Notes: generated by a model from the letters alone, not told the origin. Positions 23,198 to 61,200 are shown, counted from the first letter of the stretch. The stretch: 64,000 nucleotides of DNA from an uncultured Methanosarcinales archaeon (GCA_964550175.1 CAZJXP010000001.1:322774-386773); one strand, 5' to 3'. A program made the numbers and translations.

Positions 23198-23285
23198 ATT
23201 TTAAGCTTTGCATAAGTAGTTAAATTGGCTACGAGCCCATGTCCAGTGACAAACATTTTTAACTAACCTATAGATTATATAATCA

Positions 23286-25648: not shown

Positions 25649-26025
25649 AGGACCTTCACGGGCTTGCCGTAGATGGAGATGTAGCGTTCAACCAATTCGT
25701 TCGTCGGGGCGCGGATGACCGTCACCATCAATCCCCAGCCGAGATCGACCTTGTTCTCAATCGAGCACGCGCCGAGCTTGTACGCATTCATGGACCGGAT
25801 GCCCTGCTTCGTCTCCTCATTCAAATCCAGGCGCGACTTCAAGAGGCTGGCGTTCACATCAGCGCAGACATCCTCCAATAAGGCCATCGTTTCAATAAGC
25901 CGCTGCGTGTTGCCCTCAAGCTCCCGTTTGATCTCGTTCTGAAACCTGATTTCCATAACAACCACGGTGTGCGCAATCTTTAAAAAGGCTTCGACAAGCA
26001 TATTCCATATGACGCTCACGGTCAA
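25645..26025 (-). CDS. Hypothetical protein (126 aa), upstream member of an overlapping pair
   Basis: ORF with translational coupling to 25391..25648. Confidence 0.35.
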   Translation of the reverse strand: MTVSVIWNMLVEAFLKIAHTVVVMEIRFQNEIKRELEGNTQRLIETMALLEDVCADVNASLLKSRLDLNEETKQGIRSMNAYKLGACSIENKVDLGWGLMVTVIRAPTNELVERYISIYGKPVKVL

Positions 26026-26305
26026 AAAGCTCGACTACGCCGGCTACGACGGCGACTTCAGCGGCGGCTTCCTCGAAGCGCGGGTCATCACCACTGGACC
26101 GTTCGACCACTTCGTGCTTTTGAAGTACGACACGCATCCTGACCTGTTCGAGAGCCGAAGCCACTACAAAAAAATAGAATGCAAAGACAAGGACGACCTG
26201 CTGGACAAGTTCAAGCGCGCGTTCGGCGGCCACCAGTTCAAGAATTGGAAAGACACGGACGAAAACGCCGGATACTCAACGCAACAGCAGTATCTGTTCG
26301 CGTGA
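26009..26305 (+). CDS. Hypothetical protein (98 aa)
   Basis: Start taken at MTLTVKKLDY within the track's ORF 25967..26305. Confidence 0.35.
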   Translation: MTLTVKKLDYAGYDGDFSGGFLEARVITTGPFDHFVLLKYDTHPDLFESRSHYKKIECKDKDDLLDKFKRAFGGHQFKNWKDTDENAGYSTQQQYLFA

Positions 26306-26321: not shown

Positions 26322-26407
26322 CTTTTTACCGGCGATATTAGAACCGTGAGCTCAATTATGATAACACTGATGGCTCTAAAGACGAAACAAAACGTGGCGG
26401 TAAAAAG
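26322..26407. repeat. Intergenic palindromic element copy
   Basis: CTTTTTACCGGCGATATTAG ... GTGGCGGTAAAAAG; ends 19 nt before the kae1 ATG. Confidence 0.7.
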
Positions 26408-27441: not shown

Positions 27442-28611
<1,170 letters not shown>

Positions 28612-28627: not shown

Positions 28628-28744
28628 TCTTTTTACCGCCCCGATTCGAACCGTTGGCTTGATAAGAATGAAACTCGACGCCGTAACGCTACTTCCAATC
28701 GTGCCGGTAAAAAGTGATGTAAAGACGCATTTGCCGGTAAAAAG
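28628..28744. repeat. Intergenic palindromic element copy with duplicated right end
   Basis: CTTTTTACCGCCCCGATTCG ... CCAATCGTGCCGGTAAAAAG ... GCCGGTAAAAAG. Confidence 0.7.
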
Positions 28745-28795
28745 TTCACTCTTCCCTTCCGAAACCTTTTTGAACCCCTTTTTTCTATCGAAATC

Positions 28796-29102
28796 CATGC
28801 CAACCGCATCCATCTGCGCACGAATCGGCGATCCCGCCATCGACGCATGCCGCAAAGCTCTCAAGGCCAGCGGCATCGACGCCGTCCTCAGCCCATACTA
28901 CGGCGACGCGAAAAGCCCGCAGTACAACGAAAACACGTTCCCCATCATCAACCACAACGGAAAGAGCTATTACGGCAAGAAAGGGCTGCAGGAACTCATC
29001 GAAACCTACAACAAGAAAATAGCCAACAGGCCCGAAACGAAAGTCATCTCTAGCATCCACGCGCCCAAAAAAGCAAATACGGAACCCTACAAGAATCTTT
29101 AA
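28796..29102 (+). CDS. Hypothetical protein (102 aa), possible thioredoxin/glutaredoxin-like
   Basis: ORF starting 50 nt downstream of a GCCGGTAAAAAG element; C..C pair near the N-terminus. Weak. Confidence 0.35.
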
Positions 29103-29111: not shown

Positions 29112-29327
29112 TTACTTCTTTTTCTTCGGCTTAGCGCCCATCGTCAAGTCGTGCGCCTTCTCGTACTTGGCTTCCGCGACCGGATCCAGCGGCTCGAACA
29201 CCAAACCGCAGTCCTTGCAGACGACCTGGTCGAGCTCCTTCGACTTCACGAGGTTGTCGCTCGCGCAGTCGGGGCACTCGTTGATTTCCGATATGTTCTT
29301 TATCATGGGGAATTTACTGCTTTGCAA
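29112..29327 (-). CDS. Small zinc-ribbon protein (TFIIB-type C4 ribbon)
   Basis: CPDCAS...CKDCG motif, 71 aa, Lys-rich C-terminus. Confidence 0.5.
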   Translation of the reverse strand: MQSSKFPMIKNISEINECPDCASDNLVKSKELDQVVCKDCGLVFEPLDPVAEAKYEKAHDLTMGAKPKKKK

Positions 29328-29392: not shown

Positions 29393-29773
29393 ATGGACTC
29401 TCTTCCCGCGGACCTGCGCAAGGCGTTGACCGCGAAAACGAAAACACAATGGGACGCGCTCACGGAAATCGCGCGGCGGGACTTCATCAGCTGGATAAAC
29501 GACGCCAAGCAGGCCGAAACCCGCGCGAGCCGGATAAAACGCGTGCCGTCGATGCTCGCGTCCGGGAAACGAAGACCGTGCTGCTTCGCCGTCGTTCCGA
29601 TGCATTTCTACAAGGCGCTCGGGACAAACCCGAAGGCGAAGGCGCAGTGGACGACGCTTACCGCGATGGAGAAGCGGGACTTCACCGACTGGGTCGACCA
29701 AGACAAGGAGTTACGTGATAAACGGGTTGAAGAAGCGTGTGCCAAGTTAGTTGCGAAAAAAAGAAATCCGTGA
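29393..29773 (+). CDS. YdeI/OmpD-associated family protein (DUF1801-like)
   Basis: LPADLRKAL...WDALTEIARRDFISWINDAKQAETRASRI pattern. Confidence 0.55.
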   Translation: MDSLPADLRKALTAKTKTQWDALTEIARRDFISWINDAKQAETRASRIKRVPSMLASGKRRPCCFAVVPMHFYKALGTNPKAKAQWTTLTAMEKRDFTDWVDQDKELRDKRVEEACAKLVAKKRNP

Positions 29774-29950
29774 ACGTTTGCTGACCCCTGCTACCTTTTT
29801 ACAATGAGGACCTGAGGTCCTCATGTACCACAGAACCTGCTGGATTCTGTTGGTACCGCCCTGATTTGTTTCGTTAGTGCATCAATTCTAATCACAATCG
29901 AGCTCGCACTACGACAAAATTTGCCGGTAAAAAGTCCACTCTACTCAGAA

Positions 29951-31825
29951 CTACTTGCCCTGCAACTTCTTCAAAATCTCTTCCTTGCCAGTCCAATCCA
30001 ATGCTTCCTTCAAGACTTGCAGAATCGTTTCGACCGGGATGATCTTGATCTTCGCCAGCCGCTCTTCAGACAAAACAATGTCCTGCATGTTCGACTTCGG
30101 CACGATGACGTTGGCGATGCCCGCGTCAATCGCGGCGTCAATCTTAGCCGAAACGCCGCCAATGGGCAAGACGTCGCCGCGAACAGACAATGACCCCGTC
30201 ATCGCGTACGTCTGCTTGATCGGGACTTCCTTCAGCGCGGAAATAATCGCGGTAGCGACCGCAATCGAAGCGGAATCCCCTTCAACTCCTTCATAGGTCT
30301 GCAAAAATTGAACGTAAATGTCGTGCGACTGCTTGATGTCCTCGCCGAAGAACTTTCTGACAATAGCGGTGACGTTCAGGATGGCTTCCTTCGCGATTTC
30401 GCCAAGCTTTCCGGTCGCGACGATGGCCTTCTGCTCCTTGCCTAAAGTCACTTCCGCTTCAATCGGCAAGATGATTCCCGACAATGCCGCGCCGGAACCA
30501 ATCACGGCCAACCCGTTGACTCGTCCGACTTTCTTTCCTTCCGTAACGATGACTTCATACTCCTTCTTGCGCTCGATGAACTTGTCCGCCATCTGCTGCT
30601 CCAACGGCTTCGCGACCTTCTTCGCGGCAAGGATGTGTTCCGGCTCAACGAGCTTCGAATTATTTTCGAGCGCGATGTCGCCGGCAGCTCTAATCAATCC
30701 GCCTAATTCCCTGAATCGCAACGTGAGATGGTCCTTTCGGTTCGCCATTCGTCGAGCGACTTGAATGATAACATCAACCGAAGCCTTTGAGAAGTGAGGG
30801 ATCTTCTTGTCCTTCGCGACTTCCTGCGCGATGAACAACGCAATCTTGTCGCGCGTCTCCTGTGTATCCGGAATCGTTTCCTTCATGAACACTTCGTAAC
30901 CATAGCCTCGGATTCGTGAACGTAATGCGGGGTGAAGGTGTTGAATCGTTTCGACGTTGCCGGCCGCAATCATGACGAAGTTGCACGGGACAGGTTCTGT
31001 TCTTACCATCGCGCCAGCCGAGCGCTCCGACTGTCCCGTGATTGCGTACTTCCCTTCCTGCAGCGCGGTCAAAAGCTCTTGCTGCGTCTGCGGCTCGAGC
31101 GTGGCTATTTCGTCCACGAACAGCACGCCCATGTTGGCCTTGTGGATCATTCCCGCGACGACTCGCTCGTGAGCCGGCGTGCCTAAACCGCCGGACTGGA
31201 ACGGGTCGTGCTGAACGTCGCCCAAAAGCGCGCCGGCGTGCGTTCCCGTCGCGTCCCAGAACGGGGCGTTCTTCTTGCCGAAATTGTCCACGATAACTTT
31301 CGGGACTTCGATACGGATTCCCATGCCGGGACGCTTGGCCATGTTCATGAAGAATGAAAAGCCCGCGAGGAAAATCATGCCGCCGAGGAAAAAGGCAGCG
31401 AACATGATGTCGCTGTTGTAGTAGGAACGCGCCCACCAGGGGAGCACTAATGATAGGATGAGAATGATAATCAACAGCCAGTTCTGGCCCTTGAAGAGGT
31501 TGCTCGACTGCGCGCGGGCCTGCTGCACCAAGACGCGCCCTTGACCGGCCGGAACGGTGCGGATGATGGGCTGGTTCTCGTCATTCGCGTTCGGAAACGC
31601 GATGATGTCGACTAACTTTTCTTTTGGAAGCAATTCCGCAAGCGCGAGACCGAGCATCGACTTTCCCGTGCCGGGCTCGCCGATGAGAAGAACGTGACGT
31701 CGCTGCTGCGCGGCCTTCTTGATGATTTCGACGGCGTCCTCCTGCCCGATAACCTGGTCTATAATTGACTCAGAAACCTTCAGGTCAGCGGTCGACGTGT
31801 ACGCTTTTGCTTTTGATTTTACCAT
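29951..31825 (-). CDS. lonB: Archaeal membrane-bound Lon protease (LonB)
   Basis: AAA+ Walker A GEPGTGKS, two TM helices inserted in the ATPase domain, C-terminal Lon protease domain with the catalytic Ser region (MTGSLSVRG) and Lys. Confidence 0.9.
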
Positions 31826-33135: not shown

Positions 33136-33253
33136 TACCTGATAGATTGCTTTTCAATATAAATGGGTTCCGAAAAAATCCGGAAATCTTCCGGAATTTC
33201 CGTGGTTTTTCCGGTTTTTCTTGAGAAACACATTTTAAACGAAAAATGCTGTT

Positions 33254-33541
33254 TTGCGTATGCACGAAACCACCCTCCTCAAGCTCGCATTGACCTGCAC
33301 GCTCCTAGGATTGCCGCTGATATTCATCACGTCAAGCTTCGTGCACGTGAAAGAAACCGTTGAGTATGAAACGATTGAGGGAACGATAGCCGAGGTTAAC
33401 GTCACGAATGAGACGACACTTGTTTTGACGAATACTCTGACTATTCCCGACGCTCTTGATGTAACAATCGGAGGACACGCGACCGCGAAAGGTAACTGGC
33501 AGAACAACACGTTCGTCGTGAAATCGTTGAAGGTCGACTGA
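33254..33541 (+). CDS. Small secreted/membrane protein (95 aa)
   Basis: N-terminal hydrophobic helix; stop abuts the start of the downstream transporter-like gene. Confidence 0.4.
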   Translation: MRMHETTLLKLALTCTLLGLPLIFITSSFVHVKETVEYETIEGTIAEVNVTNETTLVLTNTLTIPDALDVTIGGHATAKGNWQNNTFVVKSLKVD

Positions 33542-34707
33542 TGCTCGCAATCATCCTCGGAACGCTCGCGGGCGTTGTCACCGGACTTACTCCCGGGCTG
33601 CACATCAACCTCGCGACCGTCATCCTCCTGTCGTTACCGTTGCCGTACTCGCCGTTGACGTTAGCCACCTTTATTCTTTCTATGGCAATCACGCATACGT
33701 TCCTCGACGCGCTGCCAAGCATCTATTTGAGCGCGCCGAACGCCGACACGGCGCTGCTGCCGACAAAACTATTACTGGACGGTAAAGGGCACGAGGCCGT
33801 GCGATTAACGACGCAAGGGAGTTTGCTTTGCTTGATTCTTGGCATCGCGTTAACCCCTGTGTTGATCGTCGTGTTTCCAAAAGTCAACTTCGCGCTGCAC
33901 GGAATATTAGGGTGGATACTCTTGGGAATTGTGCTGTACTTGCTTCTGCGCGAACGCGATTTGAACAAACTTTTCTGGGGCATTGTGACGTTTGTTTTTG
34001 CAGGCATTCTCGGACTCATCGTGCTGAACACCAAGATGAATGAACCATTACTGCCGTTGTTGTCCGGCCTGTTCGGCGCGAGCGGGATGCTGATGAATCT
34101 ATTTTCAATAACTGAGGTGCCGAAGCAAGAAGTCACGGACCAACTGCATCCGAACGCGCAAGAAACTGTCGAAGCAACTGCCTTGGGCACGTTCGCGGGC
34201 GTCTTCATCGCGCTGTTTCCCGGATTAGGGCCGTCTCAAGCCGCGAGCTTGACCGGATTCAGAAGCCCGTTGGGAAGCTTAGTGCAGATGGGCGGCATCA
34301 ACACGGTGAACATGCTGACCAGCCTAGTCACAATGATGACCCTACATACTGCAAGAAACGGCGCGATGGTCGGGATGCTGTCGGTGCTAGGAATGCTCGA
34401 CGGGAAAACTCTCGCGTTCTTTCTTTCTGTTTCTTTAACGGTGGCCGGAATCGCGACTTTGCTGACCTTGTTCTTATCCCGATTCTTTGCGCAACTGGTC
34501 TCTTGCGTCAACGAGAAGGCTTTAACGCTGTTCGTGCTCGGGGTTATCGTTACGCTCGTGTCTCTTTTCTCCGGCTGGTTCGGACTGTTGATTTTGTTTG
34601 TCGCGGCTTCAATCGGGCTGATTCCGCAACTCACGAACACGGCGAAAAGCAACTCGATGGCGTGCATTTTGGTGCCGGTGATATTGTTTTTACTTGGCTG
34701 GCGCTGA
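33541..34707 (+). CDS. Polytopic membrane protein, TctA/DUF112-like
   Basis: About 10 TM helices with the G..TG.TPGLH signature near the N-terminus. Confidence 0.5.
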   Translation: MLAIILGTLAGVVTGLTPGLHINLATVILLSLPLPYSPLTLATFILSMAITHTFLDALPSIYLSAPNADTALLPTKLLLDGKGHEAVRLTTQGSLLCLILGIALTPVLIVVFPKVNFALHGILGWILLGIVLYLLLRERDLNKLFWGIVTFVFAGILGLIVLNTKMNEPLLPLLSGLFGASGMLMNLFSITEVPKQEVTDQLHPNAQETVEATALGTFAGVFIALFPGLGPSQAASLTGFRSPLGSLVQMGGINTVNMLTSLVTMMTLHTARNGAMVGMLSVLGMLDGKTLAFFLSVSLTVAGIATLLTLFLSRFFAQLVSCVNEKALTLFVLGVIVTLVSLFSGWFGLLILFVAASIGLIPQLTNTAKSNSMACILVPVILFLLGWR

Positions 34708-34717: not shown

Positions 34718-34800
34718 CTTTTTACCGCCCCGATTGGTTGAGTGTCGGCATTAATTATCAACGACCTCACGCAAACTCAAAATCTACGCAGAAAAGCAAC
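34718..34800. repeat. Intergenic palindromic element copy (right end degenerate)
   Basis: CTTTTTACCGCCCCGATTGG ... CTCAAAATCTACGCAGAAAAGCAACG. Confidence 0.6.
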
Positions 34801-34831
34801 GTGAAGGAAAAAGGCAACTAAAGAAAACTAT

Positions 34832-35257
34832 CTACTTCAACCAAGCCGGAAGGATCGGGGCGATGAACGGGTACAGGTACGGCGAGAAGCCGGACAATAC
34901 GCCAATCACGATGCTGTGCGTCCAAGTTTCACCCAGACCAGCCGAGGACATGGATGAGCTCTTCAAGGCAGCAGAAACGCCGTGCACCTTGATGGCCATG
35001 ATGATAGACACCGCGATTCGGATGCCCAACACACTCCCTAAAACAGGAACGTTCGCCAACGCGGGAAACAACCCCAGAACGAACGGAACATTGAACGAGA
35101 TGAACGTGCCAGCGATGGCAAAAATCAAGGCGTGAACGCCATGCCCCAAACGGTGCTGCGGAACGGCCACATCGCGGTGGACGAGAATCATTTCATAGAT
35201 GCCGATGATAGCTCCGAAAAGAATAGACGGAATGACGATAAGCGCGGTTGTTGCCAT
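34832..35257 (-). CDS. Membrane protein (141 aa, 4 TM)
   Basis: Hydrophobic ORF. Confidence 0.45.
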   Translation of the reverse strand: MATTALIVIPSILFGAIIGIYEMILVHRDVAVPQHRLGHGVHALIFAIAGTFISFNVPFVLGLFPALANVPVLGSVLGIRIAVSIIMAIKVHGVSAALKSSSMSSAGLGETWTHSIVIGVLSGFSPYLYPFIAPILPAWLK

Positions 35258-38388: not shown

Positions 38389-39090
38389 ATGGAACTATCC
38401 CAGAAGCCCAAGAATGTAACAGTCATAGCAGGTTTTCCCGGCTTCGGACTTGTCGGCACTGTGGCAACTGGTTTTCTCGTCGACCATCTGGACGCCGAAC
38501 GCATCGGAAACCACTGGTTCGAGGAGCTGCCCGCGACTATCGCGCTGCACGACGGCAAAATCGTCGATCCCGTCGGCATCTACTACTCCAAGAAATACAA
38601 TCTCGTCATCGTCCACAGCATCGCGAATGCTACTGGCGTCGAATGGCTAGCTTCTGATTTAGTATTGCAAGTGTGCAAGGAACTTAGCGCGAAGGAACTG
38701 ATAGCGATCGAAGGCGTCGGCAGCCAACGCATGGAGCTGCAGCGCGCGTTTTACTTCTCTACCGACGGTAAAAATGAGAAAGCGTTAGCGAAAATCGGCG
38801 TCGAGCCCTTGAAGGAAGGCATCATCGTCGGCGTCACGAGCTCACTTTTGCTCAAAGCGAAACTACCAATCACTTGTTTGTTCTCTGAAACTCATACGAA
38901 TCTGCCGGACTCCAAGTCAGCCGCGAAAGTGGTTGAAGTCTTGGACAAGTATCTTGGCTTAAACGTTGACTATCTGCCACTCCTGCAGCAGGCAGCCGAG
39001 TTCGAAGCAAAGGTCAAGACCATCCTTCAAAGCCAGGCCAAGACCCAAACGGACTCCGAAACCAAGAAGAATTTGAACTACATCACGTAA
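38389..39090 (+). CDS. Proteasome assembly chaperone family protein (PAC2/PbaA-like)
   Basis: VIAGFPGFGLVGTVATGFLV N-terminal signature of the archaeal PAC2 family. Confidence 0.7.
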   Translation: MELSQKPKNVTVIAGFPGFGLVGTVATGFLVDHLDAERIGNHWFEELPATIALHDGKIVDPVGIYYSKKYNLVIVHSIANATGVEWLASDLVLQVCKELSAKELIAIEGVGSQRMELQRAFYFSTDGKNEKALAKIGVEPLKEGIIVGVTSSLLLKAKLPITCLFSETHTNLPDSKSAAKVVEVLDKYLGLNVDYLPLLQQAAEFEAKVKTILQSQAKTQTDSETKKNLNYIT

Positions 39091-39270
39091 TTCTGGCATT
39101 ATGCTCACTTTTAGCCTTGTTTGATACTTGATGATGGTTTGTTCTGAGGGTTAATTCTCCCTTTTTTCGACCTTTGAGCTAGTGCCTAATGGGAATAGTT
39201 GAGTTTGAGACTGGTTGGCTACCTGATAGCTCACAATTCTAGCTCACCCAAGCAAGTCTGCCCAAGCCAA

Positions 39271-39365
39271 CTCTTTACCGCCACGATTGGACGCGTTCGG
39301 GCATCGACCGTTTTTGTGATCCAGCCAACTGCTCAAAATCTGCCGGGGACGACGGCAAAAATGAC
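39271..39365. repeat. Intergenic palindromic element copy (right end degenerate)
   Basis: CTCTTTACCGCCACGATTGG ... CTCAAAATCTGCCGGGGACGACGGCAAAAATG. Confidence 0.6.
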
Positions 39366-40510
39366 GAACAGGCGACTGCGACCTCCCCAAACTGCCCTTC
39401 GGCACCCAAAAACTCACTCACAAACTCCCCCTCGAATGCGCCGTTACCTTGCAAAATCAAACGAACTCTCACTTTTTGCCTTCAAATGATTTATTTTAAA
39501 TATGCAAGGTAATTACTCGAGCATGCCTTGAATAACTAGAATATCGAGGTTCAACAAGATAAATAACAATAGTTATTTTCTGTCCATTAGTTTAGACTTA
39601 CTCATTATCAGATAGTTATTTTAAAAACTATTTCTTATGCAACAATAATTCTTTTAAATGAATTTGTCACTAAAAATTAGGTAGCAAAGTCAATCAATTT
39701 TGTTCTTCAATTGCGAATTTTGAAATGCAATTGAGTGAATTGTCGATTTTCTCGCCTGATTGAGCGCGGATCAAAAATGACCTCAATTGCACCAAAACAA
39801 GGGTTCAATTAATGACTTTTTTCCTGACGCTAGCGCGCGAAAACAGTCCAAAAATAGACCGCACAACGCGCCTAAAACCTCTTGCGCGCGAGTTTTCAAC
39901 CGGCCGCGATAAACCCTCAAACAAACAAAAATCTCGCGTGAAATCGCCCCTGTTTTCGCCATAAAAACCGCAAAACTATCGTCGTAACCATTGAAACCAA
40001 CCCCATTTTCAAACCTGTCAGCGATAATCCCGAATTTTCTTCATTTGTGCGAATAAATGGATCTTTTCGTGTGGCAGCAGGCTTCGGCGCGACGACCCCC
40101 GTGACCTCGTCTGCAGGGATTAAGGAGGAAAGTCCGGCAGAATGGCGACTGGGACGGGATTTGGCACGACCGGACGGGTTTCGCGCGAACACGACAGTTT
40201 AGGGGTTTGTCAAAAGTGTCGGCAAAATCCCGACGACACGAATTGAGCCCCTCAATGCCACCAAAACCAATCATCCAGCCTAGTGTGGCCCTGGTGTTTG
40301 TACCTTTTACGCAAAAAAGTGGCTAGAATCGGCTGTAAACGCGTCGCGTGAAGGACTTGGATTGATGGTTACCCCCCATTTGCGCACCTGCGCAATAACT
40401 TCTGCATTTTGATTAAAACTTTTAATTCGGATGTAACCCCCGAAACCTGTCAGGGATTGTTCCGAAAGGTTTAAATCACACCGCATGCATCCAAAATCAG
40501 CAAAAAACAG

Positions 40511-41023
40511 GTGACCATCGTGAAAATCCAGCTTGAACACGCCGAATCTCTCCCTGACGCAAGTGTCGAAGAGCTCGCAAAAACGCTTCTTGCTCGATTC
40601 GGACTGCTGCCACGCAAGAAAGACGGCTCGGCCGCAATGCACAAACTGCTACTCGAACTCTACGAACGCAAGAAGGTCGCGAACCGGGACCGGAAACCCG
40701 AATCTGCCGTGATTCCCGTCGAGCTCATGGGACACCTGGCCGGCATCAAGCGCCAAACGATGTACGAGTATCTGCACCGCTGGCTTGACCTTTCCATTCT
40801 CAAAAAGACTTCCTTCGTCGCGGACGGCAAAGTCGTGATTGGGTATGAGCTGAACGGCGCGAATCTTGAAGGAGCTTTTAGGAAAGCAGAAACCTCAATC
40901 CGCAACCACCTCGAAACGAGCCTAAAACTCGTCGACACGCTGCAGAACGAAGTCAAGAAGGACAAGCTCAGGCAAGGGTTCAAGGAAACTGCTGAGACGC
41001 CCGCAATCCCCCCATCTCCGTAA
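40511..41023 (+). CDS. Winged-helix DNA-binding protein with C-terminal helix (170 aa)
   Basis: wHTH segment LAGIKRQTMYEYLHRWLDLSILKK...VIGYELN. Confidence 0.5.
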   Translation: MTIVKIQLEHAESLPDASVEELAKTLLARFGLLPRKKDGSAAMHKLLLELYERKKVANRDRKPESAVIPVELMGHLAGIKRQTMYEYLHRWLDLSILKKTSFVADGKVVIGYELNGANLEGAFRKAETSIRNHLETSLKLVDTLQNEVKKDKLRQGFKETAETPAIPPSP

Positions 41024-41138
41024 ACCTTTTTACCGGCACGTTTGGTTCCGTTTCGGCCTCAATTCTAATGACGATAAAGCCAACGCGACAAAATCTGCCG
41101 GGGAACGGAGAAACCAGGGAAGAAATGGCGGTAAAAAG
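41015..41138. repeat. Intergenic palindromic element copy
   Basis: CTTTTTACCGGCACGTTTGG ... CAAAATCTGCCGGGGAACGG ... GGCGGTAAAAAG. Confidence 0.7.
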
Positions 41139-41153
41139 CCAACGAAAATTCAG

Positions 41154-41705
41154 TTAAGCACTATGCTGATCCCAGTAGGTAAGCTTGGTGTCCAGTTTGA
41201 CGATATTTTGCTTCGCCTGAGCTTGGCGGAACTGCTTGTCCAGGCCCAAAAACGCGTTGCCGCTGGAGTACTTTTTCTCGACCGGAACTCCCTTCGAAAT
41301 CAATGCCGTGATGGAGCGTGAAACGATCTCAACGGACGTCGTCAATTTGCGCGCCAATTGGTGGTACGTGACGAACGGCGTCGTCTCGGTGAGCGTGTAG
41401 AGCGCGAAGAAGGCTTCTTTTTCCGGGCCGGTCAGCGGCTGGACCTTGAATTCCGGCATCACTTCCGCAGGCTTTCCGTGGCGGACGAGCATCGTCAGCT
41501 CATCCAGCCGTTCCTGCAGCTTGTCGAGCCGCGAATTCAGCTGGTTCAGGAGCTCGAAATTCGACTCGATTTCGCTCGTGTTTTCATTCAGCGCGGAACG
41601 GTGGTCGTCAAGCTGGTCCTGGATGCTCAAAAACGTCTTGTCAAGATCTTGTCGAAGGTCATCGTGCTCGCGACGGAACAATGTTTGCTGTCCCTCATTT
41701 TCCAC
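41154..41705 (-). CDS. Coiled-coil plus C-terminal wHTH regulator (paralog A)
   Basis: N-terminal coiled coil, C-terminal TTPFVTYHQLARKL...SRSITALISKGV HTH. Confidence 0.5.
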   Translation of the reverse strand: MENEGQQTLFRREHDDLRQDLDKTFLSIQDQLDDHRSALNENTSEIESNFELLNQLNSRLDKLQERLDELTMLVRHGKPAEVMPEFKVQPLTGPEKEAFFALYTLTETTPFVTYHQLARKLTTSVEIVSRSITALISKGVPVEKKYSSGNAFLGLDKQFRQAQAKQNIVKLDTKLTYWDQHSA

Positions 41706-41776
41706 TGATTACCACCCAACGATTTTGTGATTTTGAGTCGCTCTTAAGCTGATTTCGATACTGCAACAGCGAGGTT

Positions 41777-42529
41777 TCAGCGCTCATGTCGCACCTTTTT
41801 CGCACGGGCGCCGCCCCACAAATACCGCTTTTCCTTGCCCTCATCAACGACCGTGATGTCCTGGGTTCCTTCGATTTCCTCAAGCAACCGGTAGAAGCTG
41901 CTCTTCGAGCACAGGCCCTGCTCGTGCACGATGCTTTCGCGCAACGCGACGCCGGAAACCTGACCATGCATTCGAATGAGATTGAAGATGCTTTCCTTGA
42001 TCAAATCTTTGCTATTTCTGACTGCCATTTTGATGACTTTTTCTTGCAGCGCGGAGCCCATTTCCGGCGGCGTCCTGAGACTGCTGGGAATGACAGTTTG
42101 TCGACGGACATTCCCAAGTTCTGAGACCTGGGAATGAAGCTGTTTGAGCTGCGCGAACACGTCAATTTGCTGCGTTTCGATCGCGGACATTTGCGGCGCG
42201 ATCCTGCCGAGCGCATCAATGCGATGCTCGATCTCGCGCACGCGCTCAAGCACCGGTTCGACCGAATAATGCGCATCAACCAAGGCCTTCACGTCCTCTT
42301 TCGTGAGCCGCGGAAGCGAAGAAATCACGTGCGATTGGTCGTCCAACTCGCGCTGCAGGCGCTGGTTCTCCGCCGCAAGGTAATTCACCCATTGCGACAG
42401 CAGGCCCATGTCCTCTTTTGCCGACGAGAAGGACGTCCTTACGTTCTCCTCGACCTGGCGGATCTCCTCTTTTGTGGCCAAGCCAAACATGCGGTTGGCA
42501 ATCGCCAACCCATTTAAAAACCTTTTCAT
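41777..42529 (-). CDS. Coiled-coil plus C-terminal wHTH regulator (paralog B), preceded by an operator-like repeat array
   Basis: Same architecture as 41154..41705; start codon sits directly downstream of the TCCCAGGAC repeat cluster. Confidence 0.5.
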   Translation of the reverse strand: MKRFLNGLAIANRMFGLATKEEIRQVEENVRTSFSSAKEDMGLLSQWVNYLAAENQRLQRELDDQSHVISSLPRLTKEDVKALVDAHYSVEPVLERVREIEHRIDALGRIAPQMSAIETQQIDVFAQLKQLHSQVSELGNVRRQTVIPSSLRTPPEMGSALQEKVIKMAVRNSKDLIKESIFNLIRMHGQVSGVALRESIVHEQGLCSKSSFYRLLEEIEGTQDITVVDEGKEKRYLWGGARAKKVRHER

Positions 42530-42680
42530 TCCCTGGGATGGTCCCAGGACATTCCCAGGACCGTCCCAGGACTATGCTGGGAATGAGCACAAGCTAAAAC
42601 GAGTGTAAAATACATTTAAACGTGATTCTCATTCCCAATTGGGACGGTCTCAGGACCATCCCAGGACTATCCTGGGACTA
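42528..42680. promoter_or_regulatory. Operator-like array of about 8 YCCCAGGAC / GTCCTGGGR sites symmetrically flanking an AT-rich TATA-like spacer, immediately upstream of the 41777..42529 wHTH gene
   Basis: TCCCTGGGA, TCCCAGGAC x3, CTGGGAATGAG | spacer TAAAATACATTTAAAC | CTCATTCCCA, TCTCAGGACC, ATCCCAGGAC, ATCCTGGGAC. Confidence 0.6.
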
Positions 42681-43261
42681 TAGTGAAAGGAAATATATAA
42701 ATAGTAGTTGCGACAAACAACCGAATTAGTTCAGGATCAAGCGGATCCGGAACGGCCAAAATCGTTGGTTTTTAGGTTCCCCCCGGTTCCTGAAAATCAG
42801 CAAAAGGTGGCTAAAACAGGCAAAACTCCTGGTGCCTACCAACGCCAGGAAAAAGAGCCAAAATCAAGCGAAATCAGCCGGGTTGTGAGCAAAATCAAAT
42901 AGCTGCCACGAATTCCGGCAAAAGAGCAGAAAGCAAGGGAAAAAGAGGGTGAAAAGTGATTCGTGCGAGGGATTGTGAAGGAATACCCATAGCCAGTAGA
43001 GTATGCCATAATCCCTCCCCGTAGAGCAAAAAGTGAGAGTTCAGAAGGTGGTTTTTGAGCCTTCATCCCAGGAGATCCCGGGAAAGAGTGAGGCTCAAAC
43101 CCCCTTTGAACTGCAGAAGCCACCCTGTGAGCCAGAGTGAGCCCTGCAAGGACCCGTCAGAAGGCTGAAACAATGCCAAACCAAGGGCGTTGTGAAGCAA
43201 AAGTGAGCGTGAGACTGTGAAAGAGCAAGCTTTATTAGGCACTAGTCGGAAGCAGGGTTGA

Positions 43262-43954
43262 ATGGCCCCTGGACACACCACCCGCTTCTATATAGAGACG
43301 CTTCCGACCGAAGGCATCGTCAAGATGCCCAAGGAAGCGTCGCGACACGCGAAAGCCTTGCGCCTGAAGGACGGAGACCTCATCCAAGTGTTCGATGGCA
43401 CGACCGAGTACACCGCAAGGCTGCTCACGAACCACGAACTCGAGATAGTGGCTAAAAGTGAGCACACGAGCCATTCTGGTGCCCAAGTCACCCTCGCAAT
43501 AGCTTTTCCCAAAGGACCACGAGTGGACTGGCTCGTTGAAAAGGCAACCGAGCTTGGCGTGCACGAGATTATCCCTCTTATTACGAAACGCACCGTCGTG
43601 AACCCGCGCGACACGAAAGTCGAACGACTGCAAAAGCTCGCGATCACGGCGTGCGAGCAATGCGGACGCAGCACGATTCCCAAGATCTCGCTGCCCATTG
43701 CCGTCGACAAACTCCTCGCGCGAACGAACGAGTTCGATGCCTGCTTTGTTGCGGATGGATCCGGAAACAAACTCTCACTTTCAAAATCCGCAAAGAAAAT
43801 CCTCGCCCTCATCGGACCCGAAGGCGGATTCTCCGACGAGGAAATCACAAAAGCAAAGAGTACTGGCTGCCACATAATCTCACTTGGAACAACGACGCTT
43901 CGCACCGAGACTGCTGGACTCACGATACTGGCCCAGCTCAACGCACTCCTATGA
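43262..43954 (+). CDS. rsmE: 16S rRNA (uracil-N3)-methyltransferase RsmE
   Basis: PUA-like N-terminus, SPOUT C-terminus with IGPEGGFS motif. Confidence 0.8.
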   Translation: MAPGHTTRFYIETLPTEGIVKMPKEASRHAKALRLKDGDLIQVFDGTTEYTARLLTNHELEIVAKSEHTSHSGAQVTLAIAFPKGPRVDWLVEKATELGVHEIIPLITKRTVVNPRDTKVERLQKLAITACEQCGRSTIPKISLPIAVDKLLARTNEFDACFVADGSGNKLSLSKSAKKILALIGPEGGFSDEEITKAKSTGCHIISLGTTTLRTETAGLTILAQLNALL

Positions 43955-43959
43955 TCAAC

Positions 43960-44042
43960 CTTTTTACCGGCAATATTGGTAGCGTCGTTACGTCCGTTAC
44001 TATCACGACGACAACGCGACGTCCAATCGGGGCGGTAAAAAG
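43960..44042. repeat. Intergenic palindromic element copy (most symmetric: 20-bp terminal inverted repeats)
   Basis: CTTTTTACCGGCAATATTGG ... CCAATCGGGGCGGTAAAAAG. Confidence 0.75.
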
Positions 44043-44123
44043 CTTTCCTGGCAACTATCAACGGGTGCCTAAAACCATAACGCTTTTAAATGACTCAAGA
44101 ACAACCGAACAAGGTGGTATGAA

Positions 44124-44405
44124 ATGGTACTAAACGTGAAGATTCTCGACGAGAAGAAGAACAAGATATCCTTCGAAATCGAAGGCGACTCGCACACACT
44201 TTCTGCTGCGCTGACCAAGGAACTCTGGAACGACAAGAGCGTCAAGGCAGCCGGCTACAACGTGGACCACCCCCTTCTGGGCAAACCCACGTTCACGGTC
44301 GAAACCGACGGCGAAGACCCCAAGAAGGTCGTTTCCGCAGCCGCGAAACGACTGGCCAAAGCCGCTGAAAAGCTCAGCGAACAGGCATCCAAGGAACTCA
44401 AGTAA
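44124..44405 (+). CDS. rpoL: DNA-directed RNA polymerase subunit L (Rpb11 homolog)
   Basis: 93 aa; FEIEGDSHTLSAAL...YNVDHPLL pattern. Confidence 0.8.
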   Translation: MVLNVKILDEKKNKISFEIEGDSHTLSAALTKELWNDKSVKAAGYNVDHPLLGKPTFTVETDGEDPKKVVSAAAKRLAKAAEKLSEQASKELK

Positions 44406-52921: not shown

Positions 52922-53209
52922 ATGTCACTCAAGGTTGATTTGGATTTAATGGACACCTTCTCCCCGGATGACCTAGAACGCATTCTCAAAGATGTCCACG
53001 CCATCACCGAAAGCCCGTTCGGCAAGAATTTCTATCCTGCTGGAGCCGTCATGCGCGTCGGCATCGACAAGAAACCTGATGGACGCATCGACTACCAAGT
53101 CACCATCCACAGCCTGCCTCCTAGCCAAACGGGCAGCTACAAGATAAAGTCGTATACCTACCAGTCAACGCCGGCAAAACCGTTACACGGCCATCTCAAT
53201 CGGGCGTAA
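52922..53209 (+). CDS. Hypothetical protein (95 aa)
   Basis: ORF. Confidence 0.4.
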   Translation: MSLKVDLDLMDTFSPDDLERILKDVHAITESPFGKNFYPAGAVMRVGIDKKPDGRIDYQVTIHSLPPSQTGSYKIKSYTYQSTPAKPLHGHLNRA

Positions 53210-53234
53210 AATATCTACGTTTACGTTGCTCCCC

Positions 53235-53311
53235 CCGGCAGATTTTGAGTCGTTAGTTATATCGTAAATAAAATTCTGAACGTAACGACGTCCAAACATG
53301 CCGGTAAAAAG
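53235..53311. repeat. Intergenic palindromic element copy (inverted orientation relative to most others)
   Basis: CCGGCAGATTTTGAG ... CGTAACGACG ... CCAAACATGCCGGTAAAAAG. Confidence 0.7.
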
Positions 53312-53312: not shown

Positions 53313-53591
53313 TTACGGCTGACTTCCTACTTTCGGACACACGCCTTCCGTCCAAGAAGCCACGTTTTCGTCCTTGCAGGCCTCGCACTTATTGTTGAAG
53401 TTCTGCGCGCACGGATACGCAAAACATTGAATCTTCTCAGAATACCAGCCACAGACTTGGTTGTACTCCGAAGGACAGACCGAAACCAAACGGTCAGCGT
53501 CCGTGCAGTTGGCCTGTTTGATTTCAGGCGGAGCACTACACGCGGCTAAGAAAAGAACGCAAAAAAGAAGCGGAATTCTCACAGGCAGCAT
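53313..53591 (-). CDS. Cys-rich secreted lipoprotein (92 aa, 10 Cys)
   Basis: Start at MLPVRIPLLFCVLFLAACS (lipobox); mature part is Cys-rich. Confidence 0.5.
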   Translation of the reverse strand: MLPVRIPLLFCVLFLAACSAPPEIKQANCTDADRLVSVCPSEYNQVCGWYSEKIQCFAYPCAQNFNNKCEACKDENVASWTEGVCPKVGSQP

Positions 53592-53854
53592 TTGCCCGAG
53601 TGCTGGCCGACCAGCACGAACGCGACCGCGATCATAACTGTGCTTAAAGCGCTCACGGTGAGACCATCCAGCGTGCCCAATTGCACGAGCGTGAACAAGA
53701 CCGAAGAGACGATGAACAGCAAGAACGCCCACATCAGCAAGACCGCGCTCTTCGCCTTCGTGAGGTAATACAGCCCGATAAGCGCCGCGACCAAGTGCAC
53801 GATTATCCAAACAAGACTAGGAACCGAACTGAACCATCCTGCGCCGAATGCCAT
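53579..53854 (-). CDS. Small membrane protein (91 aa, 3 TM)
   Basis: Hydrophobic ORF overlapping the start of the downstream lipoprotein. Confidence 0.45.
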   Translation of the reverse strand: MAFGAGWFSSVPSLVWIIVHLVAALIGLYYLTKAKSAVLLMWAFLLFIVSSVLFTLVQLGTLDGLTVSALSTVMIAVAFVLVGQHSGKCCL

Positions 53855-55053: not shown

Positions 55054-55238
55054 GTCACCTTGATTGCATATTCTGCCGCCTTCGTGATGCCGACTTTCTT
55101 CGCGACATCGCTCTTCTCGGCGTCCATGATCGTCATCCTTCCTTTCCAGTTCTGCACGAGCTGGGAGCCCTTGCAGACGGGGCATTCGTGTCCGTCGACC
55201 AATGCCTTACACTTTTTGCATGCTTGTTTCTTGCTCAT
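55050..55238 (-). CDS. spt4: Transcription elongation factor Spt4 (RNA polymerase subunit E'')
   Basis: 62 aa with CKKC...CPVC zinc ribbon; sits between rpoE' and S24e as in other archaea. Confidence 0.8.
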   Translation of the reverse strand: MSKKQACKKCKALVDGHECPVCKGSQLVQNWKGRMTIMDAEKSDVAKKVGITKAAEYAIKVT

Positions 55239-55846
55239 TTCTTCTCCTTCTTCTTGTCTTCCTTCTTCTCTTCCTTGACTTCCGCCTTTGCGGGAGCCTT
55301 GTTCTCGGCTTCAATCCACTCGAGCTTTCCTAAGCCAACTTGACGCATCGTCAAGCCAATCTTCGGGTTCAGCGGATCCTTGAATGAAACTGCGATGACT
55401 CTTGCGCGACATTCGTCGCCGACCTTCAATGCGCGCTTCGAATCCTTGCCCGTCAGGACTTTCTCCTTGGCGAACGAAACGAAGTCGTCCATCGTCTGGC
55501 TGACGTGGATCATGCCGTCTATCGGGCCCATCGTGAGGAATGCACCGAAATCGGCGATATCCTTGATTCTGCCCGGGATGACCTCGTGCATTTCCGGCTT
55601 GAACGTGATTAAGTTGAAGGTGGTCTCGTAGTACGCCGCGCCGTCGCCGGGGATGATGATGCCCTCGTTGACGCTCTCGACGTTCAATACATCGATGACG
55701 AATCCGATATCCTCATCGATGAAACCGCCGTACTTCTCTCTGACGGCCTTGATAACTGCTTCGTTGACGTCGTTCACGAAGTGCTTCGGAGCGACGCGAA
55801 TATGGTCCTTGAGTTGGGTTTTGTAAAACATGTTGGTGTCCATCAA
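55235..55846 (-). CDS. rpoE: DNA-directed RNA polymerase subunit E' (Rpb7 homolog)
   Basis: N-terminal RNP domain and C-terminal S1 domain. Confidence 0.85.
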   Translation of the reverse strand: MMDTNMFYKTQLKDHIRVAPKHFVNDVNEAVIKAVREKYGGFIDEDIGFVIDVLNVESVNEGIIIPGDGAAYYETTFNLITFKPEMHEVIPGRIKDIADFGAFLTMGPIDGMIHVSQTMDDFVSFAKEKVLTGKDSKRALKVGDECRARVIAVSFKDPLNPKIGLTMRQVGLGKLEWIEAENKAPAKAEVKEEKKEDKKKEKK

Positions 55847-55940: not shown

Positions 55941-56040
55941 CTTTTTACCGCCACGTTTGGTACCGTCGTTACGCGTACGATTCTAACTACGGTACGAACT
56001 CAAAATCTGCCGGTGCGAACCAACGTGCGGAGAAAAGCAA
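55941..56040. repeat. Intergenic palindromic element copy (right end degenerate)
   Basis: CTTTTTACCGCCACGTTTGG ... GTCGTTACG ... CTCAAAATCTGCCGGTGCGAACC. Confidence 0.65.
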
Positions 56041-56044
56041 ACTA

Positions 56045-56440
56045 CTAACTCAATCCACGTTCAATAAGACTCAAATAACCCTTTTCTCTGATTACAATAA
56101 CACCGATTCCGGCTGATTTTAACCGTTGTTTCAAGCGCTGGTCCTGGGTCGCGACGATGTCTTTTTTTGTGGCGGTCGAGACGAGCAAGTCGTCGACATG
56201 CCCTCCTTTCGTTTTCAACGTGATAATGTCCTTGTTGGATGCCAATATCAGAAGCGCGATGCTGCCGAGCTCCTTCTTCTTGCCGCCCAAGGCCTGGAAC
56301 TTCTTCAGCTCGTCAAAGACCCGGTCCAACACGACGATATCATACGCAAAATCGCAAATGCGACGGATCTCTCCGAACAGGTCGACTTTCCACCTCACGG
56401 TATCCAGAATCAAGTTGGTGTCGAGGAATACGCGTCGCAT
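56045..56440 (-). CDS. PIN-domain protein
   Basis: N-terminal VFLDTN acidic motif; 131 aa. Confidence 0.6.
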   Translation of the reverse strand: MRRVFLDTNLILDTVRWKVDLFGEIRRICDFAYDIVVLDRVFDELKKFQALGGKKKELGSIALLILASNKDIITLKTKGGHVDDLLVSTATKKDIVATQDQRLKQRLKSAGIGVIVIREKGYLSLIERGLS

Positions 56441-57542: not shown

Positions 57543-58778
57543 ATGAAGATTCCCGCGATTCTTAAGCAAGCCCTTTCTGAAATCTCGCCCAACAAGGAAG
57601 ACCACTGGGTCGTCAAGGACGTCAACGCCTTTCTTAATCGACTGAAGCTCGAGCTGAAGTCGCGCAAAATCAACGCAAAACCGATTCTTGGTGGCAGCTT
57701 CGCGAAAGACACCTGGCTCAAGGGAGACTACGACGTCGACGTGTTCGTGGCTTTCGATATGAAGCACAAGGACGATGCCCTCAGCGATTTGCTCGCGAAA
57801 GCGTTAAAGCCGTGGAAAACCGAACGCGTGCACGGCTCGCGCGACTACTTCCAAATCCACGGCAAGATCAACTACGAAATCATCCCGGTGTTGGCGATCA
57901 AGACCGCGAAGCAGGCGCAGAACGTCACAGACTTTTCGCCGAAGCACGTCGCGTGGGTCAACACCAAAGGAAAGAAGTTCAAGGGAGATATTCGATTGTT
58001 CAAAAAGTTCTGCAAAGCCCAACGCATGTACGGCGCGGAAAGCTACATCCGAGGCTATTCAGGACACGTGGTCGACATCCTCGTCATCTACTTCAAGGGA
58101 TTCCTTCCGTTGCTGAAAGCAGCCTCGAAATGGGACGCGAAAGCGAAAATCGTGTTGGACTACAACAACTCATTCAAGGGACAGGCGCTGTTCAAATTGA
58201 ACGAAAGCAAAATCCAAGGGCCGCTCGTGGTGGTCGACCCGGTCCAGCCGGACCGCAACGCGGCCGCCGCCTTGGTGCAAGAACATTTCGAGGCGTTGAT
58301 TCATGCTGCAAAAGATTTCCTCAAGAAGCCGTCCATCGACTTCTTCATCGAAGAGACCGAGTCTGACGCCGACTTGAAGAAGCAAGGGGCGTTGATTATG
58401 CACGCGACGACCATCAAGGAAAAGGAAGATATCGCCGGCGTCAAGATGGTCAAGGCGTTCCAGTACATCACGCAGCAATTGATCGACAACGACTTCACCG
58501 TCATGAGCGACTGGCAGTGGGACAAGAAGTCACACGCCGTCTACTGGTTCCGCACGAAAGAAAAGACGCTTCCGGCAACGATGCTCCGCCGCGGGCCGCC
58601 GACCGACATTCCCAAAGCGGTTGCGATCTTCAAGAAGAAGTACAAAACTACAAAGACCGTCAAAGGACGGCTGGTCGCGAACGTCAAGCGCGAATTCCGA
58701 ACGCCTCTTGAGGTCATCAAGCACGCGATGAAATCGGATTACCTGAAAGACAAACTCGTCGCGCTCAAACTCGCATGA
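57543..58778 (+). CDS. cca: CCA-adding tRNA nucleotidyltransferase, archaeal class I
   Basis: GGSFAKDTWLKGDYDVDVFV nucleotidyltransferase motif; start at MKIPAIL rather than the track's upstream ORF start. Confidence 0.85.
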   Translation: MKIPAILKQALSEISPNKEDHWVVKDVNAFLNRLKLELKSRKINAKPILGGSFAKDTWLKGDYDVDVFVAFDMKHKDDALSDLLAKALKPWKTERVHGSRDYFQIHGKINYEIIPVLAIKTAKQAQNVTDFSPKHVAWVNTKGKKFKGDIRLFKKFCKAQRMYGAESYIRGYSGHVVDILVIYFKGFLPLLKAASKWDAKAKIVLDYNNSFKGQALFKLNESKIQGPLVVVDPVQPDRNAAAALVQEHFEALIHAAKDFLKKPSIDFFIEETESDADLKKQGALIMHATTIKEKEDIAGVKMVKAFQYITQQLIDNDFTVMSDWQWDKKSHAVYWFRTKEKTLPATMLRRGPPTDIPKAVAIFKKKYKTTKTVKGRLVANVKREFRTPLEVIKHAMKSDYLKDKLVALKLA

Positions 58779-59404
58779 ACCTTCTCAATTTCATATTGCA
58801 TTTAGATACGTCGCTGGACGCGTTGATATCTCAGTTCGGCATCGGGATTTACGTCATTCTCTTCATCGTTATGTTTTGCGAAACCGGGCTTGTTGTCACG
58901 CCGTTCTTGCCCGGCGATTCTTTGTTGTTTGCGGCCGGAGCGTTCGCGGCGCGCGGGACGATGAGCTTTTGGATATTGTTTATCACATTGACGATCGCGG
59001 CAATACTTGGGGACACGGTCAATTACTGGATTGGGCACAAACTCGGAGCAAAAGTGTTCACGCGCGAAACCGGATTCTTCAACAAGGAGCACCTGACCAA
59101 GACGCACGCGTTCTACGAGAAATACGGGCCGAAGGCGATCGTGCTCGGCAGATTCATCCCGATAATCAGAACGTTCGCGCCGTTTGTGGCGGGCGTCGGA
59201 AAGATGGCGTATCCAACGTTCGTTTTCTACAACATCACCGGCGCAATACTCTGGGTCGGACTGGCGCTCGGCGCGGGGTATTTGTTCGGAAACATTCCGG
59301 TCGTGAAGGACAACTTCACGTTGGTCATCCTCGCGATTATCGGGATTTCTCTGTTACCGGTGATTTGGGAAGCTTATTCGCACAGGAAGAAGAAAATAAG
59401 TTAA
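58775..59404 (+). CDS. DedA-family membrane protein
   Basis: GLVVTPFLPGDSLLFAAGAF motif. Confidence 0.75.
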   Translation: MNLLNFILHLDTSLDALISQFGIGIYVILFIVMFCETGLVVTPFLPGDSLLFAAGAFAARGTMSFWILFITLTIAAILGDTVNYWIGHKLGAKVFTRETGFFNKEHLTKTHAFYEKYGPKAIVLGRFIPIIRTFAPFVAGVGKMAYPTFVFYNITGAILWVGLALGAGYLFGNIPVVKDNFTLVILAIIGISLLPVIWEAYSHRKKKIS

Positions 59405-59431
59405 GATTTTTCCCAAGCCGTTCTTCCTGCG

Positions 59432-59500
59432 CAGATTTTGAGTTAGCGTTAGGTCGTCGATAATTAACGCCGACACTCGACCAATCGGGCCGGTAAAAAG
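59432..59500. repeat. Intergenic palindromic element copy (CAGATTTTGAG ... CCAATCGGGCCGGTAAAAAG subtype)
   Basis: Paralog of the 10548..10618 copy. Confidence 0.7.
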
Positions 59501-61119: not shown

Positions 61120-61200
61120 CTTTTTACCGGCGAGATTGGACGTAGCGCAGTCAAAGTAAATCTGATTTCAAAATCATAACGCATAAAAAGGGGAACACGT
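61120..61200. repeat. Intergenic palindromic element copy (right end degenerate)
   Basis: CTTTTTACCGGCGAGATTGG followed by an A-rich degenerate tail. Confidence 0.55.

Follow-up and report, generated by a model that had tools for sequence, protein, structure and literature searches.

A palindromic repeat family concentrated behind archaeal genes, of the mobile-repeat type and probably co-opted as a two-way terminator, both by inference

What are the short palindromes that recur between the genes of a 64,000-nucleotide archaeal stretch (GCA_964550175.1 CAZJXP010000001.1:322774-386773; "the window" below always means this whole stretch), and what, if anything, do they do for their host? The question is best posed by the full 83-bp element at positions 43960-44042, which reads CTTTTTACCGGCAATATTGG ... 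CCAATCGGGGCGGTAAAAAG, has the left end CTTTTTACCGGC and the right end GGCGGTAAAAAG, and begins 6 nt past the stop codon of a methyltransferase gene (43262-43954). [quoted passage not shown] On balance, we favour a non-autonomous, lineage-specific and non-coding repeat of the MITE/REP type, which has probably been co-opted as a two-way terminator.

That the repeat family is real is borne out by its terminal 12-mer, CTTTTTACCGSC, for which the window has 26 matches with up to one mismatch, where 0.74 ± 0.79 would be expected. None of 100 dinucleotide-preserving shuffles reaches this number, and 20 of the 26 ends are exact. An nhmmer search of the window with a profile made from the clear copies recovered 15 full-length copies and six fragments, together 2.7% of the sequence. 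The elements range from 75 to 145 bp, encode no consistent open reading frame (ORF) and are intergenic in all full copies except one, which lies in ftsY. Repeat finding and a reading of each locus showed a copy or a fragment at every coordinate that the earlier note had given.

The position of the copies relative to genes is strongly biased. The gene map was compiled from ORFs, Logan gene calls and Rfam matches, and spacers of at least 30 nt were counted. Elements are found in 7 of 10 convergent and 10 of 31 tandem spacers, versus one of 15 divergent spacers (Fisher p = 0.0017 for convergent versus divergent spacers; p = 0.021 for all spacers with a gene 3' end versus divergent ones). Reassignment of the Zn-ribbon gene at 29112-29306 to the other strand adds one more empty divergent spacer. 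Copies are kept almost exclusively downstream of genes, and the even spread over tandem, divergent and convergent spacers that had been described for the family does not hold. An ORF at 28632-29102 that would start inside the element 28629-28744 was also considered; its longer start has no homologue support, and the ATG at 28796 was kept.

Two forms of the element can be distinguished. The short form, of about 83-86 bp, consists of two inverted 20-bp ends with about 43 variable bases between them. The long form, of 100-115 bp, has about 10-25 extra bases between an outer CTTTTT(A/C)CCGC-like end and an inner arm, CCCCGGCAGATTTTG. The block CTCAAAATCTGCCGG, previously taken for an interior motif, turns out to be this second, inner arm of the long form. 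The terminal inverted repeats (TIRs) are imperfect, with CTTTTTACCGGCACGATTGG and CTTTTTACCGCCCCGATTGG agreeing at 18 of 20 positions. Every element with two outer ends (8/8) pairs one CTTTTTACCGGCACGATTGG-type (GGC) end with one CTTTTTACCGCCCCGATTGG-type (GCC) end, which would have a probability of 0.004 if the ends were independent. With one end of each type per element, the same two mismatches are present in every hairpin, and the element can be assigned a polarity. Pairwise identity between copies is 82% in the ends and 40% in the interiors. In single-sequence folds, whole elements form one long imperfect hairpin with z-scores from -0.6 to -4.7 (-32.6 kcal/mol and z -4.5 for the copy at 43960-44042), and the interiors alone are weakly self-complementary (mean z about -1.0). 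RNAalifold recovered no consensus RNA structure from a MAFFT alignment of 15 copies, because the arms are out of register in the alignment. Rfam likewise has no match on the elements, neither in the whole window when its gathering threshold is applied nor, with the limit relaxed to E ≤ 1, in the region 39000-44200, where three copies lie.

The family has dispersed to unrelated sites. Three copies (10544-10618, 34718-34793 and 59426-59500) form a young subfamily that is 85-88% identical over full length at unrelated loci; taken as 10541-10618, the first of them is 85-86% identical to the 34718 and 59426 copies. All other pairs of copies are 53-79% identical. The copy in ftsY (6279-7964, minus strand), formerly regarded as partial, is in fact complete (7705-7796) and lies inside the reading frame, in the acidic N-terminal linker. 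It is contained in an in-frame unit of 129 nt (43 codons), with 22-nt direct repeats at 7675-7697 and 7804-7826, the sole flanking duplication in the family. The element site corresponds to a gap in 4 of 12 orthologues, and a half-element consisting of the CCCCGGCAGATTTTG arm (7248-7286), also inside the reading frame, sits in another variable stretch of the FtsY linker. The FtsY N-terminus MFKFLKDKLKGALSSFSKK, encoded upstream of the copy, is nearly invariant in the 12 orthologues, with one position varying, and the start codon at 7964 is therefore real. The N-terminal region of FtsY is itself unusually long, hypervariable and acidic, with three GFF.(K/R)LK motifs and large indels among orthologues. 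Taken together, the in-frame ftsY copy and the three 85-88% identical copies suggest that the dispersal happened by insertion.

Several elements have been remodelled at their ends. One end is duplicated in two elements (5495/5511 and 28703/28733), and two ends are split exactly after CTTTTTAC by inserts of 46-52 nt (8623-8668 and 29804-29852). Each insert is made up of a pair of small hairpins that finish in (T/G)GTAC. Their exact placement suggests that a second insertion unit, tiny and site-specific, is present. In a pattern search of the window for these hairpin units, only 8627 and 8650 match; the other hits fall for the most part within coding or rRNA sequence and seem fortuitous. In addition, two Logan contigs stop exactly at the edge of an element, at window position 28630.

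What the copies might do is indicated by the gene ends that they follow. Oligo-U tracts are the established archaeal termination signal and act with aCPSF1 (PMC8716108). Just past the stop codon, on the coding strand, the elements provide a run of five T or longer (T5): at 13 element-adjacent gene ends, the first coding-strand T5 after the stop is the C-T5-A of the element, located 2-22 nt past the stop, with one at 54 nt. No native T5 lies between the stop and the element at any of these 13 ends. Of the element-free gene ends, 12 carry a native run of five or more T at 0-21 nt past the stop, and if the landing of elements were indifferent to such tracts, a native T5 would be expected at 38-60% of the 13 ends (p from about 0.002 to 7e-6). 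Native post-stop tracts (GCCTTTTTAT, TGCTTTTTCA and CCATTTTTCA) have a C-T5-A/C context similar to the element end. Of the 27 T5 tracts that lie in the window no more than 30 nt past a stop codon, 12 belong to elements. Each outer end in this genome presents C-T5-A to incoming transcription, at positions where element-free genes carry their own oligo-T, and at present an element would most likely behave as a portable terminator or insulator that works in both directions. Termination, as one half of the regulatory reading, is thus plausible.

The promoter half does not stand as a general function. It holds that each end is an outward-firing module of TFB-recognition element (BRE) and TATA box, which would make the elements bidirectional promoter cassettes. 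The distances given earlier between element ends and start codons are correct (19 nt for kae1, 52 nt for the gene at 28796, 82 nt for rpoL, 66 nt for the gene at 59566, and about 90 nt for the genes starting at 5330 and 55846); over the family, however, they vary from 19 to 140 nt. Moreover, canonical TATA boxes stand 24-52 nt outside the elements. That of rpoL (TTTTAAAT, ~44084) lies 42 nt past the element 43960-44042, and that of gene 59566 (TTTTAATC, ~59537) 37 nt past the element 59404-59500. The box TTTATAAA of the rpoE/Rpb7-like gene 55235-55843 is located at ~55905, beyond the element 55941-56044 and before the start at 55846, and TTTAAATA precedes the gene starting at 5330, outside the element 5422-5522. 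Because canonical TATA boxes stand beyond the elements, the general promoter reading fails.

Two genes are in keeping with promoter activity, since TAAAAAG lies at a TATA-compatible distance in front of kae1 (26426) and of the gene at 14167. The right-end TAAAAAG of the element 26322-26407 is about 19-26 nt before the kae1 ATG, and kae1 has no other TATA-like sequence because the element fills the remainder of the 120-nt spacer. At 14167 the ATG is preceded at 31 nt by a solo end. TAAAAAG also resembles the CTTAAAAG box upstream of tRNA-Leu. A few ends, such as that at kae1, may therefore have been co-opted singly as a TATA box, without the element being a general core promoter. As to whether the element had split an operon that kae1 and its upstream gene form in relatives, the upstream genes are not homologous, which makes the comparison uninformative. 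Measured against the archaeal core promoter, with BRE/TATA about 26 nt upstream of the start, the family was rejected as a candidate on account of the variable distance, the separate TATA boxes and the near-empty divergent spacers; two ends fit. Convergent spacers, which need no promoter, are those most often occupied, and many ends face stop codons 2-22 nt away. The promoter cassette reading is largely refuted by this distribution, and we regard it as very improbable.

The host and its relatives provide a second line of evidence. The window holds an archaeal 16S-tRNA-Ala-23S unit, and for LonB and FtsY the nearest proteins bear the label Candidatus Woesearchaeota (up to ~77% identity for LonB); the host is a Woesearchaeota-like DPANN archaeon. 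Exact window proteins are also found in three Logan assemblies. A scan with CTTTTTACCGSCNCGNTTGG, which combines the terminal motif with the arm, gave 58 single matches in 185,579 GTDB species representatives, which is chance level, and 88 single matches in JGI metagenomes, never two per contig in either database; the paired-arm pattern had no match in viral contigs. These chance-level matches mark the exact end as specific to this strain. The family does not stand alone, however: four related genomes carry related families, each with its own consensus ends (..GCAG.TTTG / CAAA.CTGC..). As a probe, the older arm CCGGCAG.TTTTG would have served better than CTTTTTACCGSCNCGNTTGG.

Relatives with 82-84% identical LonB (L155, L152 and L154) have palindromic repeats of 70-85 bp with related arms. 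In L155 these read CCCAAGCAGGTTKGTAG ... CTACAAAACTGCCTGGGG and occur as four copies in 22 kb; L152 has three copies, and the metagenome-assembled genome GCA_964362535.1 has CTCAAAGACTACAGGGG-type arms. The older arm pair is CCGGCAGNTTTTG ... CAAAANCTGCCGG, with variants in L155, L152 and L158. No related repeats were found in 19.6 kb of a 77% relative (L156) or in 6 kb of an 86% relative (L157). All seven L155 and L152 copies lie in spacers with a gene 3' end, five of them convergent. Two positions recur: the tctA spacer (34718-34815 in the window) holds an element at the syntenic position in L152 and L155 as well, and the PAC2 spacer (39271-39350) has an L152 element at the same relative position (2144-2228). 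The related arms indicate that the CCGGCAG.TTTTG arm is old in the clade, and the outer end CTTTTTACCGSC is a feature of this genome.

How well, then, does the combination of a mobile repeat and a terminator account for the family? The MITE/REP-like reading of the earlier note holds up, with imperfect TIRs around a variable interior, dispersed copies including the young subfamily, the in-frame ftsY copy and related families in related genomes. Several results weigh against the combined reading. With respect to mobility, a Pfam scan of 30 window ORFs found no transposase or integrase, and no target-site duplication was found flanking the clean copies at 43960, 26322, 5422, 28629 and 41026. No presence/absence polymorphism was seen either; the five Logan contigs, which come from three samples, match the window at 100% identity and are therefore uninformative on this point. 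With respect to termination, sense-strand T5 is not avoided in coding sequence (34 versus 25.8 ± 4.5 after codon shuffling), one sense-strand T5 end lies inside the essential ftsY, and T5 ends are for the most part missing from the related families of L155 and L152. The element halves within 16487-16579 put a sense-strand CTTTTTACC in the presumed rRNA precursor; either the 23S rRNA has its own promoter (TATA-like CTATATTG, ~16780) or the T5 there terminates inefficiently. Finally, selection that removes insertions from promoter regions can give rise to the 3' bias as well. Since T5 is unavoided in genes and occurs within ftsY and between tRNA-Ala and 23S rRNA, T5 alone is not a strong terminator, and since the L155 and L152 families mostly lack it, termination is not a conserved property of the wider family. 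Judged from the sequence, termination at the ends would be particular to this genome and at most context-dependent.

Much of this would also be expected of a purely selfish or neutral MITE-like repeat without host function, in which T5 is incidental or serves transposase recognition only and the 3' bias arises because insertions are lost by selection from short spacers that bear a promoter. Bacterial REP sequences are biased towards 3' ends in the same way. Such a repeat would likewise have imperfect TIRs, a variable and weakly paired interior, truncated, duplicated and nested ends and a copy in frame in ftsY, and it would not be at odds with T5 being unavoided in coding sequence or missing from related families. 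We nevertheless consider it rather unlikely, given that native T5 is kept at none of the 13 element-adjacent ends versus the 38-60% seen at element-free ones, that the end motif is nearly invariant next to interiors of 40% identity, and that its C-T5-A context agrees with native post-stop tracts. A different kind of inheritance is implied if the family is an archaeal counterpart of the system formed by REP doublets forming hairpins (REPINs) and REP-associated tyrosine transposases (RAYTs), that is, vertically inherited repeats whose infrequent duplication depends on a domesticated HUH (Y1) transposase encoded by a single-copy gene, with a consensus that co-evolves with the host lineage. The size of ~80-100 bp, the extragenic and palindromic nature, conserved ends around a variable spacer, missing target-site duplications, fixed polarity and the 20 of 26 ends exact to a master sequence all agree with this, as do the consensus versions peculiar to each related genome, which in some cases occupy matching relative positions (tctA and PAC2 spacers). 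However, those shared positions may be coincidence because elements fill most 3' spacers, and by eye the copies at the shared tctA position have no obvious similarity in their interiors. The arms are not ~14-bp hairpins and bear no GTAG/CGTC tag, there is no Y1 transposase among the 30 window ORFs in Pfam searches, and REPINs have been stated as not detected in archaea (bioRxiv 10.1101/2021.07.10.451892), all of which renders this explanation improbable.

In a bolder version, the repeats would be more than decaying parasites: a vertically inherited, host-co-evolving archaeal counterpart of REPIN-RAYT systems or bacterial interspersed mosaic elements (BIMEs) would be the standard two-way terminator/insulator cassette of a streamlined DPANN genome, its T5 ends a host-beneficial innovation of this particular lineage; we hold this to be doubtful. 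Least probable of all is that a DNA-binding or chromosome-organising protein recognises the elements as its sites, or that they encode structured small RNAs. The strongly conserved ends at a fixed spacing of ~63 bp and the stable whole-element hairpins of some copies (z down to -4.7) would suit either, but interior pairing is weak, neither a consensus RNA structure nor an Rfam match at E ≤ 1 was obtained, nothing points to a promoter and a terminator around the element, one copy lies in a reading frame and truncated copies are present. A MITE/REP-like repeat with a probable secondary role in termination thus remains the reading that we prefer.

The individual copies illustrate both the bias towards gene ends and the variety of forms. 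From the left, a fragment with one end (TTTTTTACCGCC, minus strand) at 2234-2277 lies 100 nt upstream of tRNA-Leu. The full element at 5422-5522 has a duplicated right end (5495-5506, 5511-5522), 6 nt from the stop of the gene 5528-6277 (minus strand). Beyond the ftsY copy and half-element, a long form at 8615-8758, with its left end split by the nested 46-nt double-hairpin insertion (8623-8668), has its right outer end, GGGAAAAAGC, 17 nt from the stop of an scpA-like gene (8775-9539, minus strand). A full element at 10130-10208 is positioned between the gene 9695-10105 (plus strand) and a tRNA gene with a probable intron (10337-10467, minus strand), and the next, 10541-10618, is the sole copy in a divergent spacer, a full element of the young subfamily between two tRNA genes. 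The solo end in front of 14167, mentioned above, is GCCGGTAAAAAG (14110-14136), and the element halves in the spacer between tRNA-Ala and 23S rRNA occupy 16487-16517 and 16541-16579. The full element at 26322-26407 begins 17 nt past the stop of the gene 26009-26305, with the ATG of kae1/tsaD downstream. At 28629-28744, 18 nt past the stop of the malic-enzyme gene (27442-28611), lies a full element with a duplicated right end (28703-28714, 28733-28744) and reversed polarity, the GCC-type end being on the left.

Convergent genes frame many of the remaining copies. The full element at 29795-29934, whose left end is split by the nested insertion of ~50 nt (29804-29852), lies between an omdA-like gene (29393-29773) and lonB (29951-31825, minus strand) and places T5 22 and 17 nt after their stops. 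The long form of the young subfamily at 34718-34815 separates tctA (33541-34707) from the gene 34832-35257 (minus strand), and another long form, 41026-41138, fills the spacer between 40520-41023 (plus strand) and 41154-41705 (minus strand), with T5 3 and 16 nt after the stops. Full elements are also found at 53231-53311, between 52922-53209 (plus strand) and 53579-53854 (minus strand), and at 39271-39350, downstream of the PAC2 gene (38389-39090). The copy at 61120-61200, in a convergent spacer, has an intact left end and a degenerate right half. The long form at 55941-56044, between tandem minus-strand genes, has an outer end that abuts the stop of the gene 56045-56440. The long form of the young subfamily at 59404-59500 begins at the stop of the gene 58775-59404, with T5 2 nt after it.

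Other features of the window deserve mention. The 23S rRNA gene (16813-20128) contains a group I intron match at 18772-19134 (Rfam RF00028, 52.1 bits, cut-off 50), and the 23S rRNA match spans 3316 nt versus a 2987-nt model. A low-GC island at ~20100-24500 (GC 0.33-0.43 versus ~0.52 elsewhere) has no element copy and carries genes for a D12-class N6-adenine DNA methyltransferase (22310-23197, minus strand) and a PD-(D/E)XK nuclease (23286-23954); it is probably an acquired restriction-modification-like module. The tRNA gene at 10337-10467 (minus strand, 131 nt) is probably intron-containing; Rfam gives it 54.5 bits, and ARAGORN missed it. Two stretches are free of called genes. The 730 bp at 42530-43260 have 11-nt periodic TCCCAGGAC repeats (42536-42582 and 42642-42688) beside a TATA-like sequence, and Rfam has no match there. 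About 1.2 kb downstream of PAC2 (39350-40520) are without an Rfam match at E ≤ 1, and a similar stretch lies beside PAC2 in L156 (512-1775); this region may hold an unrecognised RNA gene. A 66-nt repeat (24728-24793 and 33180-33245, 73% identical) is rich in TTCCGGAAA-type palindromes, and L156 has a similar TTTCCCGGAAAGTTTCCGGAA pair at 7870-7898 and 8648-8676; these repeats may be operator sites of a conserved regulator. The adjacent minus-strand genes 11436-12056 and 12056-12454 have a 68-nt segment in common at 76% identity (11950-12017 and 12351-12418) and are probably tandem paralogues.

DPANN genomes are small and streamlined, yet 2.7% of this stretch is given over to a single repeat family, which occupies most of the spacers behind genes. 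Should transcription indeed terminate at the ends, the family would document a mobile palindromic cassette that supplies archaeal oligo-T terminators in both directions, native terminators having been replaced at nearly half of the gene ends with a T5 within 30 nt of the stop. The family is also a test case for REP-like systems in archaea, and should the idea of an archaeal REPIN-like cassette prove true, it would be the first such system described in Archaea. The FtsY copy shows that an essential protein can incorporate repeats of this kind. In practical terms, the repeats can break short-read assemblies, as the two Logan contigs that end at an element edge illustrate, mislead ORF callers and possibly serve as strain markers.

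Among known systems, archaeal oligo-T terminators working with aCPSF1/FttA (PMC8716108) are matched by a T5 or longer on the non-template strand shortly past the stop; here, unlike in that system, the tract resides on a repeated palindromic cassette, in both orientations, and its role in termination is putative. Rickettsia palindromic elements (RPEs) are likewise ~100-bp palindromes found in frame in tolerant surface or linker regions, a situation paralleled by 7705-7796 and the fragment 7248-7286 in the acidic FtsY linker. In contrast to RPEs, one gene is affected in this window and nearly all copies are intergenic; lineage and sequence are unrelated. MITEs and Correia elements (Correia repeat enclosed elements or Neisseria miniature insertion sequences, CREE/NEMIS) are similar in being non-coding, ~100 bp long, dispersed and mostly intergenic, with imperfect TIRs. 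Genes that lie next to Correia elements can obtain promoters and terminators from them. The marks of classical MITEs derived from DDE transposons, namely TIRs and small, non-coding, multiple dispersed copies, are found here, but target-site duplications are not, nor is a parent insertion sequence (IS) or transposase present among the 30 window ORFs. Palindrome-associated transposable elements (PATEs) derived from IS200/IS605 have no TIRs, separate subterminal hairpins and insertion 3' of a fixed tetra- or pentanucleotide, whereas our element ends in true TIRs and forms a single long hairpin; the TTAC in CTTTTTAC with nested inserts directly after it is only suggestive as a PATE-like sign.

REP, BIME and REPIN sequences are similar in most respects: they are short, extragenic, palindromic and of high copy number, lack target-site duplications, have conserved ends around a variable spacer and a consensus of their own in each lineage, and are concentrated downstream of genes and between convergent genes, where they have been proposed to act in termination and to stabilise mRNA 3' ends. 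As in REP/REPIN, an extragenic element of ~100 bp has its variable spacer between two conserved arms in inverted orientation. The REP/REPIN arm, however, is a short palindrome of ~14 bp, often with a GTAG or CGTC tag (10.1101/2021.07.10.451892, PMC3733652), whereas here it is a plain 20-bp inverted repeat whose only palindrome is its CCGG core and which has no such tag. The host is archaeal, and a putative oligo-T stop precedes the hairpin instead of a U tract following it. In a census of prokaryotic MITEs, one Woesearchaea genome stood at 105 MITEs/Mb, among the highest values in archaea (PMC11602168).

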